NCBI GenBank assembly: GCA_051439505.1
Contig: JBFRWI010000228.1
Coordinates: 1 to 64,000, forward strand
DNA length: 64,000 nt
Reading direction: 5' to 3'
Source: Hormoscilla sp.
GTDB taxonomy: Bacteria > Cyanobacteriota > Cyanobacteriia > Cyanobacteriales > Desertifilaceae
The notes beneath the pieces were generated by a model, which was given only the letters and a program-made list of their open reading frames with translations, did not search any database and was not told the origin of the DNA. Below, piece by piece: positions 2,909-43,573 of the stretch; position 1 is the first letter of the stretch; each line of letters opens with the position of its first letter. The position numbers and the translations under genes were made by a program.

Positions 2909-3029
2909 GGGTGCATCTCACTTGGGCACGGGCGAAGCATTCGGGGCGGTAATTTGTCTTCTTATGTCATCATTTTTTAGCCCGAATGCTTCGCCCCTAC
3001 AGATGGATCGGCAAAACTAAGATGCACCC
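2909..3029. mobile_element. MITE family A (TIR GGGTGCATCT(CA)) with internal REP-like hairpin and 8-bp TSD
   Basis: Ends GGGTGCATCTCA / AAGATGCACCC; TATTGACC at both 2901-2908 and 3030-3037; near-identical copy at 43452-43573. Confidence 0.85.
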
Positions 3030-5761: not shown

Positions 5762-5986
5762 ATGATGTCAAGCACCTATCGTCTGAAAGCTAGCGAACTA
5801 GACGAGCGCTTTTTAGCAGGATTGAAATCGATCTTTGGGGATAAAGAAATAGAGATTATTGTCTCTGAAGTCAGCGAAACAGATTACTTGCTAAAATCAG
5901 AGGCTAACAAGAATAGACTCTTGCAGGCTGTCGAAAACGTTAAAAATAGAACCAATTTGGTTGAAGTTAATTTAGAGGAACTGTAG
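5762..5986 (+). CDS. Small antitoxin-like protein
   Basis: 74 aa; ETDYLLKSEANKNRLLQAVENV resembles the C-terminus of YefM-type antitoxins. Confidence 0.55.
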   Translation: MMSSTYRLKASELDERFLAGLKSIFGDKEIEIIVSEVSETDYLLKSEANKNRLLQAVENVKNRTNLVEVNLEEL

Positions 5987-5987
5987 A

Positions 5988-6085
5988 ATTGGACTTGATA
6001 CCAACATTCTCATTCGCTATTTCACCCGCTAGACGTGCGCACAGTGGAAACAAACTACTGAATTAATTCAAGCAGGCGAAAAGAC
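5988..6085 (+). pseudogene. Remnant of a VapC/PIN toxin N-terminus
   Basis: Translates IGLDTNILIRYFTR* then, in another frame, QWKQTTELIQAGEK; no start codon and truncated. Confidence 0.55.
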
Positions 6086-6189: not shown

Positions 6190-6792
6190 TTATGGCACGG
6201 CCATCCCTCGCTGCACCGCCGGACGCTGCTGTACTGTTTCTGCCCAACGTTTTAAGTTCGGATGATTATCCAGAGTTAAATTCAGAAACTCATAGAGCGC
6301 AACCCAAGGATAGATCGCAATATCCGCGATCGAATAATCCCCGCAGACAAACTCCTGTTCAGATAACTGCCTATCCAAGACAGAATAGAGTCGCAGAGTC
6401 TCCTTTTCATAGCGCGCGATCGCATAAGGTATCTGTTCAGTCGCAAAGCGCCTAAAATGACTCAGTTGACCGAACATCGGCCCGACACTTCCCATCTGCA
6501 ACATCAACCATTCAATTACCTGAAAGCGACCTTTTTGGTCATGAGGGAGTAATTTACCAGTTTTTTCCGCCAGATAGATCAGGATCGCACCCGACTCAAA
6601 CACAGTTATCCCCGTATCCCGATCGATTATAGCCGGAATCTTGCTATTAGGATTAATCGCCACGAACTCCTCTGAAAACTGTTCGCCTTTGGTGATGTCA
6701 ATCTTATGGACATTATAAGGAAGTTCCACTTCCTCCAGCATAATCGAAACTTTGCGTCCGTTCGGGACGCTGAACGTATACAGGTCAATCAT
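6190..6792 (-). CDS. Glutathione S-transferase (YfcG/YghU-like)
   Basis: MIDLYT..PNGRKVSIMLEE, INPNSKIPAI, FESGAIL, YSIADIA; likely start ATG at 6792. Confidence 0.9.
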   Translation of the reverse strand: MIDLYTFSVPNGRKVSIMLEEVELPYNVHKIDITKGEQFSEEFVAINPNSKIPAIIDRDTGITVFESGAILIYLAEKTGKLLPHDQKGRFQVIEWLMLQMGSVGPMFGQLSHFRRFATEQIPYAIARYEKETLRLYSVLDRQLSEQEFVCGDYSIADIAIYPWVALYEFLNLTLDNHPNLKRWAETVQQRPAVQRGMAVP

Positions 6793-6937
6793 CTTCCGAG
6801 ACAACTCCATGTGCATATACTAACTGCCTACTGTGGGGCCATCGGGGGGCGATCGCCATCAGCAAGTCTAGAGCAATTCTAAAGCAATTCTGGCATCCGA
6901 GCCCACCCCTATCGTTTCTGGGCAACTGGTGGACGGT

Positions 6938-7022
6938 GCTGGTGGCGGCACTGGTGGGCGGTGCCGGCGGTGCCCACCCTACCTCTGCTGGTGGCGGCAC
7001 TGGTGGGCGGTGCCCACCCTAC
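6938..7022. repeat. REP-like GGTGGGCGGTGCCCACCCTAC palindromes with a short tandem duplication
   Basis: Same motif at ~11102-11134, 15820-15961 and ~57073-57095. Confidence 0.7.
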
Positions 7023-7031
7023 CTCTGTTTT

Positions 7032-7909
7032 TCCGGATCCCGAGATACCTCATTTGAAAAAGCTTACCAGTAGATGCACCCTGATGATCTTCCTCCAGTC
7101 CCTTGGGGCTGGGGGATTTTTTTTGCTCCAGTCCCACGATCGTCATCCCGCAACAATAAAATATCAGCTATCTTTCCGGATCCCGAGATCCCCCCTCGGA
7201 AAAAGCTTACCAGTAGATGCACCCTGATACTCCTCCCGCCTTTTAGCTGGGGGGAGTTTTTTTGTACTGGTTTCGCCTTTCTATATACTCCCAAATCAAA
7301 TATCTTGTCTTTTTCCGGATCCTCATTATCCCCTCTTGAAAACTTTTACACGTAGATGCACCCTGATGATGGTCCTCCAGCCAAAATGCTGGAGGATTTT
7401 TTTCTATCCCAGTCACCATCATCCGGACCGCTAGATAAAATCATCAGCTCTTTTTCCGGATCTTCATCATCCCTCTCTGAAAATGATTGCCAGATGCACC
7501 TGATACTCCTCCAGCCCCACGGGTTGGGGGAGTTTTTTTGGCCACAGTCGCCCTTTTATCCCCCCATCCCACCATCCGATCGCCAAAAACGTTGCTTTTT
7601 CCGGATCTCTATATTACCCCCTGAAAATAATTGCTATATGCACCCTGATTACTCCTCCAGCCCCACGGGTTGGAGGAGTTTTTTTCCCGCGATATATATC
7701 CTGTTTCTCCCTAATATTTTTACCTTCGTCAACTTCCCGGAGAGCGACATTGGTGCTGTTCTCTAAACATTTATATAACCTCTTTGCTTGGGGTTATGGC
7801 CTCAAGAAGCAGAATTGGCGGTGAATGTGACATTTGTTCTCTCCTAATGCAAACATCAGGTTTCTACCTGGGGTAATTTTTCCGGATCGCAAAAATTACC
7901 GCGAGAAAA
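7032..7909 (+). promoter_or_regulatory. Six DIF1-like promoters TCCGGA-N17/18-GAAAA
   Basis: TCCGGA at 7032, 7175, 7314, 7455, 7600, 7881; GAAAA at 7056, 7199, 7338, 7479, 7623, 7905 (gaps 18, 18, 18, 18, 17, 18). Confidence 0.7.
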
Positions 7910-7968
7910 GGATTAGCAGATGCACCCTGCTGATGCTCCCCCCTAGCCCCGTGCTAGGGGATTTTTTT
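7032..7968 (+). ncRNA. Tandem array of six NsiR1-like small RNA genes (~50-55 nt each), each with its own promoter and terminator
   Basis: A(G/T)ATGCACC starts at 7072, 7215, 7354, 7492, 7636, 7918, each followed by a GC-rich hairpin and a T-run; period ~140 bp; one degenerate slot near 7736. Confidence 0.75.
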
Positions 7969-8028: not shown

Positions 8029-9120
8029 ATGACCTTTGACCGCTTAATGATGCACCGGTGTATCGAACTGGCTCGTCGGGCTTGGGGACGAACTGCTCCC
8101 AATCCCTTGGTAGGTTGCGTAATAGTGAAAGACGGTCGGATAATAGGAGAAGGCTTTCATCCCCAGGCAGGTGAACCCCATGCCGAAGTATTTGCCTTGC
8201 GGGATGCTGGGGAAAATGCCCGGGAGGCAACAGTTTACGTGAACCTGGAACCTTGCAATCACTACGGACGCACCCCTCCCTGTACGGAAGCTTTGATTGC
8301 TGCTGGTGTTAAAAAAGTGGTGGTGGGCATGATTGACCCCGATCGCCGGGTATCGGGCAGGGGCATCGAAAGGTTGCGTGCTGCTGGCATTGAAGTCTTA
8401 GTGGGAGTAGAAGAGGATGCTTGCCAGCAGCTGAATGAGGCATTTATCCATCGGATTCTTTACCAGCGTCCCTTCGGGATCTTAAAATATGCCATGACTC
8501 TCGACGGCAAGATGGCCACAACTACGGGTCACAGTACCTGGGTCACGGGAGTGGAAGCGAGAAAATGGGTGCATCAGTTGCGATCGACCTGCGATGCGGT
8601 GATAGTTGGTGGCAATACCCTGCGTCAGGATAACCCCCAACTGACCAGTCATGGCGTCAGCGATCGCAACCCTTTGCGAGTAGTAATGTCTCGGCAACTG
8701 GACCTGCCCGCAGCAGCGCAGCTGTGGGATACGGCAGTAGCTGCGACTGTTGTCGTCACTACATCAGGGGCCGATCGGGATATGCAAAATCTGCTACAAA
8801 AACAGGGAGTCGAAGTGGTAGAATTTGACGAACTCAGTTCCGATCGGGTAATGGCCCATCTCTACGAACGCAATTTCCTCTCTGTTTTGTGGGAATGTGG
8901 GGGTACCCTGGCCGCCCGGGCGATCGCAGAGGGTGCAGTGCAAAAGATTGCCGCCTTCATCGCCCCGAAAATTATTGGCGGCACCGGGGCCCCCTCCCCA
9001 GTAGGAGATTTAGGGTTGACTGCCATGACTCAAGCTTTACCCTTAACGAAACTGCAACTCACCCAGATGGGGAACGATTTTTTGCTCTGTGGCTACTTAC
9101 CATATAAAAAGAAAGACTAA
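8029..9120 (+). CDS. ribD: Bifunctional riboflavin biosynthesis deaminase/reductase
   Basis: PNPLVG, HAE, LEPCNHYGRTPPC, AMTLDGK, ECGGTL motifs. Confidence 0.97.
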   Translation: MTFDRLMMHRCIELARRAWGRTAPNPLVGCVIVKDGRIIGEGFHPQAGEPHAEVFALRDAGENAREATVYVNLEPCNHYGRTPPCTEALIAAGVKKVVVGMIDPDRRVSGRGIERLRAAGIEVLVGVEEDACQQLNEAFIHRILYQRPFGILKYAMTLDGKMATTTGHSTWVTGVEARKWVHQLRSTCDAVIVGGNTLRQDNPQLTSHGVSDRNPLRVVMSRQLDLPAAAQLWDTAVAATVVVTTSGADRDMQNLLQKQGVEVVEFDELSSDRVMAHLYERNFLSVLWECGGTLAARAIAEGAVQKIAAFIAPKIIGGTGAPSPVGDLGLTAMTQALPLTKLQLTQMGNDFLLCGYLPYKKKD

Positions 9121-43451: not shown

Positions 43452-43573
43452 GGGTGCATCTCACTTTGGCACGGGGGAAGCATTCGGGGCTAAAATTTGT
43501 CGTTTTCTGTCATCATTTTTTCAGCCCGAATGCTTCCCCCCTACAGATGGATCGGCAAAACTGAGATGCACCC
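43452..43573. mobile_element. MITE family A copy; right boundary of the NRPS block, truncating the kinase 5' half
   Basis: Perfect 12-bp TIR GGGTGCATCTCA / TGAGATGCACCC; near-identical to 2909-3029; no TSD. Confidence 0.85.

Follow-up and report, generated by a model that had tools for sequence, protein, structure and literature searches.

We have analysed a tandem array of small-RNA genes in a 64-kb stretch of cyanobacterial DNA (the window). The array, at 7032-7968, comprises six NsiR1 genes lying between a gene of the glutathione S-transferase (GST) family and ribD. The features are listed below, with scores against the Rfam NsiR1 covariance model RF02399 (gathering cut-off 39 bits). The starts of the RNAs were placed using the published spacing of sigma-HetZ promoters.

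6190-6816, reverse strand: GST family gene, divergent from the array (best NCBIfam models NF008731/NF010579, below cut-off)
6937-7027, no strand assigned: dispersed GC-rich palindromic repeats of families D6 and D16, outside the units
7032-7123, forward strand: NsiR1 unit 1 (56.5 bits, promoter spacing); TCCGGA (-35) 7032-7037, TGAA (-10) 7055-7058, predicted RNA about 7068-7123
7175-7264, forward strand: NsiR1 unit 2 (40.2 bits, promoter spacing); TCCGGA 7175-7180, -10 GGAA 7198-7201, predicted RNA about 7211-7264
7314-7403, forward strand: NsiR1 unit 3 (46.2 bits, promoter spacing); TCCGGA 7314-7319, -10 TGAA 7337-7340, predicted RNA about 7350-7403
7455-7539, forward strand: NsiR1 unit 4, a divergent sibling (28.6 bits, E 0.007, below cut-off); TCCGGA 7455-7460, -10 TGAA 7478-7481, predicted RNA about 7491-7539
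7600-7685, forward strand: NsiR1 unit 5, a divergent sibling (37.0 bits, slightly below cut-off); TCCGGA 7600-7605, -10 TGAA 7622-7625, 16-nt spacer, predicted RNA about 7635-7685
7736-7790, forward strand: candidate remnant slot (in-register CCCGGA, weak hairpin)
7881-7968, forward strand: NsiR1 unit 6 (39.4 bits); TCCGGA 7881-7886, -10 AGAA 7904-7907, predicted RNA about 7917-7968
8029-9120, forward strand: ribD (TIGR00326, 426.9 bits, above cut-off)

The array is real. It is tiled by overlapping contigs of public DNA runs with no joint inside, and an assembly artefact is thus not supported. The source of the window may itself be among these runs; the best-matching ones belong to a single study and are labelled as marine sediment metagenome. 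A CRISPR array, a coding repeat and a mobile element were each ruled out for the units, because these match NsiR1 and because the overlapping open reading frames run through the terminators.

Along the array one TCCGGA follows another at 143, 139, 141, 145 and 281 nt. A GAA lies 18, 18, 18, 18, 17 and 18 nt after TCCGGA in units 1-6, and the ATGCACC core 42, 42, 42, 39, 38 and 39 nt from its start. A GC hairpin with a U-run closes every unit (-16.5 to -24.7 kcal/mol). The z values against shuffled sequences run from -1.5 to -6.9, and the hairpins of units 1 and 2, taken singly, are not far from their shuffles. The combined promoter-plus-core pattern occurs six times in the window and was not seen in 100 shuffles of it. 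The anatomy bears out the initial annotation, which had described six tandem units with a period of about 140 bp, a GAAAA 17-18 nt past TCCGGA, a hairpin with T-run in every unit, and an A(G/T)ATG motif 36-40 nt past the start of TCCGGA, in agreement with a core beginning at 38-42.

No two units of the array are identical. Their mean identity is 0.86 in the 5' end of the RNA and 0.72 in the promoter and hairpin. The spacers, previously described as unconserved, average 0.54 compared with 0.48 after shuffling, which is near background; that description holds for the mean but not for spacers 1 and 3, which are 0.73 identical and appear to retain the trace of a block duplication. The predicted 5' ends of units 4-6 would be about 3 nt shorter than those of units 1-3. 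The core of unit 4 also lacks one C, and that of unit 5 starts with TATGCACC. Unit 6 is the one retained at its position in all four other Hormoscilla loci.

A decayed unit had been proposed near 7736. All that is found in this slot is the in-register CCCGGA, 136 and 145 nt from the neighbouring units, and a weak hairpin, with no core, U-run or Rfam match, so that it is at most a candidate remnant. The adjoining segment 7780-7870, outside the repeats, is shared by the Hormoscilla relatives as the flank that precedes unit 6, and may include a binding site for a regulator.

Outside the array, ribD begins 60 nt past the last terminator. Both ribD and the GST gene appear to be flanks, tied to the array by position. 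The palindromic repeats abut unit 1 on its upstream side, and the same repeat is found in contigs of other organisms; we take them to be REP-like. Elsewhere in the window, 83-2342 holds a DGQHR-domain gene and a gene for DNA phosphorothioation-associated protein 4, both above their NCBIfam cut-offs. At 5762-6031 there is an open reading frame of 74 amino acids with no NCBIfam match, followed by a very short frame that presumably corresponds to the start of a PIN-type toxin, possibly in a broken toxin-antitoxin pair.

Membership of the NsiR1 family

The initial annotation had allowed either a homologue or an analogue of NsiR1, and had pointed to the Rfam model as the means of deciding. Four of the six units reach the RF02399 cut-off and two fall below it, with matches for all six. 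On these matches we assign the units as NsiR1 homologues, and the array as a further member of a known family. The conserved 5' core is present, with a GC hairpin and U-run after it within about 50-60 nt, and each of the six repeats has a DIF1 promoter to itself, correctly spaced.

At the type locus the NsiR1 array lies upstream of hetF and divergent from it, an arrangement that is absent at the GST-ribD locus. It is found in a second array of the host genome, on contig C93. The host has 13 NsiR1-core genes, the six beside ribD and seven at the following places.

G000:C93:20991-21579 (L095): four NsiR1 copies divergent from a hetF-like gene
G000:C43:22753-22934 (L096): two NsiR1 copies upstream of deoC
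G000:C144:5402-5451 (L194), forward strand: one NsiR1-core sibling behind a HetR box, recognised by promoter pattern and core

The first C93 copy is about 290 nt from the start of the hetF-like gene. Because C93 carries the canonical four-copy, hetF-linked array, the array beside ribD is an addition and not a replacement. Thus the different genomic context originally claimed is correct as to GST and ribD, away from hetF, but it is that of an extra locus. Adjacency to hetF is a trait of the context of the type locus, and not of the RNA family. The hetF-like gene on C93 lies near ftsQ-ftsZ and bears an extra TPR-like stretch.

In Nostoc/Anabaena sp. PCC 7120, NsiR1 has the same GUAGAUGCACCCUGAU core in a short RNA with an intrinsic terminator (PMC9045159, PMC6596454), and its tandem units likewise measure 133-145 bp and carry a DIF1 promoter apiece. 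The Nostoc array also holds divergent siblings (PMC9045159), as ours does in units 4 and 5 with their changed cores, and both genomes have a hetF-linked array. The host differs in lacking a nif or HetP match and, by kinship, in not forming heterocysts. It differs also in the position of its array between the GST gene and ribD, in that all units are non-identical, and in having its 13 copies at four loci, one of them behind a HetR-box promoter.

All six promoters fit TCCGGA-N16/17-[TGA]GAA, four with TGAA and one each with GGAA and AGAA. The published sigma-HetZ consensus is TCCGGA-N16-17-TGNA-N7-9, with T at -13, A allowed and G partly allowed (PMC13342950). Host HetZ passes NF037963 (606 bits, cut-off 550), and residues R279/D282/Y283/Q286 of its helix are spaced as are R291/D294/Y295/Q298, which read the -35 element. 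The host thus has the -35/-10 pattern of the Anabaena sigma-HetZ regulon (PMC13342950), the residue spacing to read it and a hetZ gene, from which activity of the promoters is predicted. The initial annotation called the promoters DIF1-type and HetR-dependent. The first applies to all six; as to the second, DIF1 promoters are read by sigma-HetZ and depend on HetR only indirectly (PMC13342950). In Anabaena a HetZ ChIP peak covers nsiR1(1-12) and is lowered in a hetZ mutant, despite which the hetZ-mutant dataset lists nsiR1 RNA as 'up' (PMC13342950).

Might the array beside ribD be largely surplus? The hetF-linked copies alone would then matter, and these units would be left over from local duplication, expressed but drifting in copy number and sequence. 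The number of units at the GST-ribD locus does vary, from six here to 4, 3, 4 and 1 in the four other Hormoscilla (leaving out one false match in a coding region in each of three loci), several of those units have core or -35 changes, and units 4 and 5 are below the Rfam cut-off. Against this, promoter, core and hairpin are 0.72-0.86 alike where the spacers reach 0.54, all six promoters are intact, and the unit types are orthologous across species whose RibD differs by 11%. We therefore regard a surplus array as quite unlikely.

Gene conversion is suggested by two separate units of one Hormoscilla genome (L015 2579 and 3702), whose cores are altered in the same way. Units of other relatives have single changes in the core or the -35 element.

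The host and the distribution of NsiR1

RibD of the host is 88-89% identical to that of four Hormoscilla genomes and at most 74% identical to that of the other 76 loci listed, which places the host with Hormoscilla. We take this genus to form no heterocysts. With the exception of its kinship, the evidence on this point comes from gene content, in a genome that is 93% complete. The best scores for nifH and nifD are 214.6 of 394 and 47.8 of 654 bits, with none above cut-off, and nifK was not found in any of the four other Hormoscilla genomes. HetP gave no match in the host genome. For a glycolipid synthase of the HglE/PfaA type the best score is 782.8 of 1010 bits (TIGR02813), below a cut-off that Nostoc, Anabaena and Moorena pass. 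From kinship and gene content we conclude that the host is not a heterocyst former, and the alternative was ruled out. The initial annotation had held that the novelty would disappear if the host were an ordinary heterocyst former with a canonical array; it is no such organism, but a canonical array does exist beside hetF. Published work describes Hormoscilla as filamentous, living in symbiosis with sponges and related to Roseofilum (PMC6520454).

The regulatory genes named in the same annotation as worth seeking, hetR and hetF, are represented, together with hetZ. Host HetR passes NF009718, and the HetF-like protein encoded on C93 scores 759 bits, below the NF045509 cut-off of 1200. The host also has a hetZ paralogue. 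The open reading frame that follows hetZ occupies the position of patU, and it matched no NCBIfam family and no PatU model. Upstream of hetR, behind a DIF1-like promoter with TCCTGA, lies a frame of 102 amino acids with two RGSGR motifs (L097 8399-8707, reverse strand), which is patX-like by position and motif and has no model match.

HetR, HetZ, PatU and DIF1 promoters in non-heterocystous filaments are already in print (PMC11298460, PMC12669612), and the host, with its hetZ followed by a gene in the patU position, resembles these organisms. DIF1 promoters have been reported from a filament lacking nif (PMC11298460). The role of the hetR/hetZ/patU/patX set without heterocysts is stated there to be unknown, and in Leptolyngbya BL0902 the effect of PatX is not exerted via HetR (PMC11298460, PMC12669612). 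NsiR1 outside heterocyst formers is also known. According to a review of 2015 it had been verified in no fewer than 19 heterocyst formers (PMC6596454), and Table S3 of a study of 2016 marks BLASTn homologues in 38 of 89 genomes, 27 heterocystous and 11 non-heterocystous, among them Trichodesmium, Arthrospira PCC 8005 and several Oscillatoria (PMC4734099). RNA162 of Limnospira indica PCC 8005, which forms no heterocysts and fixes no nitrogen, was noted in 2021 as NsiR1-like and has an RNA-seq signal (PMC8400943). These resemble the host case; as given in the table and text concerned they are presence marks and a remark, in which neither promoters, arrays and loci nor a link to HetZ are described. 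The initial claim of an undescribed HetR/DIF1 circuit outside Nostocales had thus been anticipated (PMC11298460, PMC12669612, PMC4734099).

In 40 named genomes, picked from 80 RibD loci, NsiR1, HetZ and HetR are above cut-off in the same 32. Six of these 32 belong by name to heterocyst-forming genera, and 13 have no nifK-family match; such a match is present in five of the eight genomes without NsiR1. Moorena, without nifK, has the most NsiR1 matches (34). In an even draw of 141 genomes across the phylum, NsiR1 and HetZ were above cut-off in an identical set of 33, of which 16 belong to a single family, probably of heterocyst formers, and 17 to nine others. NsiR1 was above cut-off in 28 of 41 relatives, and a copy divergent from hetF was found at 10 of the 29 best-hit loci of relatives (two from one genome). 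The conclusion that emerges is that NsiR1 follows HetZ and not nitrogen fixation, since the same genomes carry both, with or without nif. Because these genomes are kin, their co-occurrence is not independent evidence and we attach no p-value to it.

An NsiR1-core RNA behind a HetR box

The C144 copy differs from the others. It has no DIF1 promoter; upstream is GGG-N5-CCC and then a TAnnnT -10 element, and the RNA has the same core with a different hairpin. HetR has a published site of GGGnnnnnCCC and tnantngnGGGtcaanCCCanca (PMC4192349), and the fit of the sibling box to this suggests that HetR may bind it. Of the 40 genomes 26 carry the pattern, among them the heterocyst formers Nostoc, Tolypothrix, Calothrix and Chlorogloeopsis; it was absent from the reversed control and from all eight genomes without HetR. 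All 39 sibling rows, some of them overlapping, have TAnnnT by a loose test, 37 have a terminator and none has DIF1. The hairpin covaries, with two-sided changes in 6 of 10 pairs, the alignment being the one from which the structure was drawn. No variation of the 14-nt core is seen across the aligned copies (22 of 22), 12 of its nucleotides having been set by the search pattern. The gene is often preceded by a gatB-like gene and followed by argJ (in the host ArgJ is confirmed by model, and gatB was read from translations alone).

Does the sibling need HetR in order to exist? This was not borne out, because a model of the sibling found copies in two of the eight genomes lacking HetR, where the box is damaged or lost. 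In G203, with HetR present and HetZ absent, there is a copy with the box kept. Three other Hormoscilla keep the sibling, two with a damaged box. This class was not found in the literature searched, with several key papers lying outside that search, nor among the sequences of Table S3 (PMC4734099).

Mode of action and possible targets

We think it likely that each of the six genes is transcribed alone by RNA polymerase with sigma-HetZ, giving RNAs of 49-56 nt predicted to repress mRNAs via their unpaired 5' ends, and most likely within the HetR-HetZ-PatU-PatX-HetF module rather than in nitrogen fixation. By analogy with Anabaena/Nostoc, HetR would turn on hetZ, sigma-HetZ would fire all the units at once, and mRNAs paired with the free 5' end of the RNA would be blocked in translation. 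As in Nostoc, each unit would yield one short, discrete RNA, and a brief pulse of HetZ could be converted by the many copies into a strong pulse of RNA. In heterocyst formers the short NsiR1 transcripts appear in proheterocysts after nitrogen step-down and depend on NtcA and HetR; the host is not expected to form such cells. The divergent units 4-6 may act on further targets.

In Nostoc, NsiR1 represses hetF, to which it is antisense, and the hetP-like alr3234, and repression by pairing has been demonstrated in E. coli, in vitro and in Nostoc itself (PMC9045159). The one proven trans target belongs to the HetP family. That family was detected in none of five Hormoscilla genomes compared with 21 of 40 overall, and near HetP-family matches (30 loci) the invariant core pairs weakly, at best -17.6 kcal/mol. 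A scan of 5153 crudely called start regions of a single genome yielded no clear target, and a search for exact 12-mer complements nothing convincing as one. With hetR, the patX-like frame, hetZ, patU, the hetZ paralogue, ribD and gst, the core pairs no better than with shuffles. One of the better partners predicted for unit 1, at -23.2 kcal/mol, is the start of a pentapeptide-repeat-like gene (G000:C214:19984, forward strand).

The leader of hetF may be one target. The gap upstream of hetF has a 9-bp site that 4.7% of shuffles equal, this being among nine regions tried, none of them convincing. Units 1-3 could form a 16-nt duplex with the strand opposite the first of the hetF-linked copies, at -30.7 kcal/mol compared with -16.5 for shuffles. 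Such pairing could occur only if hetF mRNA started more than about 305 nt upstream. In Anabaena hetF starts at -256 (bioRxiv 2020.09.09.290692), and a start at that distance in the host would leave the leader short of the first copy. Removal of nsiR1.1 in Anabaena barely changed a transcriptional hetF fusion, an assay that does not include translation (bioRxiv 2020.09.09.290692).

The main rival is that the core is primarily a protein-binding motif, with the copies titrating or guiding an RNA-binding protein, e.g. PatR or PatU3, at times of HetZ or HetR activity, and that pairing with mRNA in Nostoc was added later. The siblings show no variation in the core, within the limits set by the search pattern, and DIF1 copies from different families show almost none; no conserved mRNA partner emerged from the scans despite this conservation, and copies lie at several unrelated loci. 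NsiR1 is also enriched in PatR CLIP-seq (log2 5.6), and PatU3 binds RNA (PMC11797042). However, PatR is present in all cyanobacteria and binds many terminators and small RNAs (PMC11797042), so that it cannot explain a distribution linked to HetZ. Moreover, repression by pairing is experimentally established, and the scan behind the missing partner was crude and limited to a single genome. On balance a protein-binding role seems unlikely, if less so than a surplus array.

Another proposal is that the RNAs act on transcripts bearing small dispersed repeats, at the ends of which the first 10 nt of the core would find an exact complement. These 10 nt, AGATGCACCC, occur 167 times in the host compared with about 20 for neighbouring 10-mers, mostly at the ends of repeats of 100-170 nt. 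But amplification of the motif is confined to Hormoscilla (101-152) and Moorena (95); it occurs 4-22 times in the other 35 genomes, whether NsiR1 is present or absent. The conserved core would be left unexplained, and no autonomous element with these ends was seen. We consider this proposal highly improbable. About 150 small dispersed repeats end in AGATGCACCC, some of 100-170 nt with inverted ends; two are at 2909-3029 and 43452-43573 of the window.

Repression through the free 5' end, which we prefer, leaves the question of what the RNAs do in a host where their known job cannot apply. They might mark cells that cease dividing or die at breakage points (necridia); this link would build on a published conjecture that HetR, HetZ and PatU place the breakage points (PMC7761841; see also PMC12669612). 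More tentatively, as a possibility that we hold below even odds, NsiR1 may be half of an ancient two-input small-RNA family, composed of a sigma-HetZ/DIF1 class and a HetR-box class with a sigma-A-type -10 element and an ancestral place between gatB and argJ. Together these would form the RNA arm of a pre-heterocyst patterning circuit, marking a hidden cell state, e.g. the future necridium, in non-fixing filaments.

The nsiR1 promoter is well established as an early marker of differentiation in single cells. It is present in every HetZ-bearing genome searched, intact and often amplified, and could be a ready reporter for asking whether such filaments contain cells in a hidden state that is patterned. 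HetR itself could be followed in addition through the HetR-box sibling. No conserved partner is known for the invariant core, which points to a target beyond those of the Nostoc work. The NsiR1-HetZ pattern makes the function of HetR, HetZ and PatU in heterocyst-free filaments (PMC11298460, PMC12669612) open to experiment.

In a Spirulina MAG (L151), a HetR-box sibling RNA runs head-on to a hetR-like gene, 78 nt from the end of that gene.
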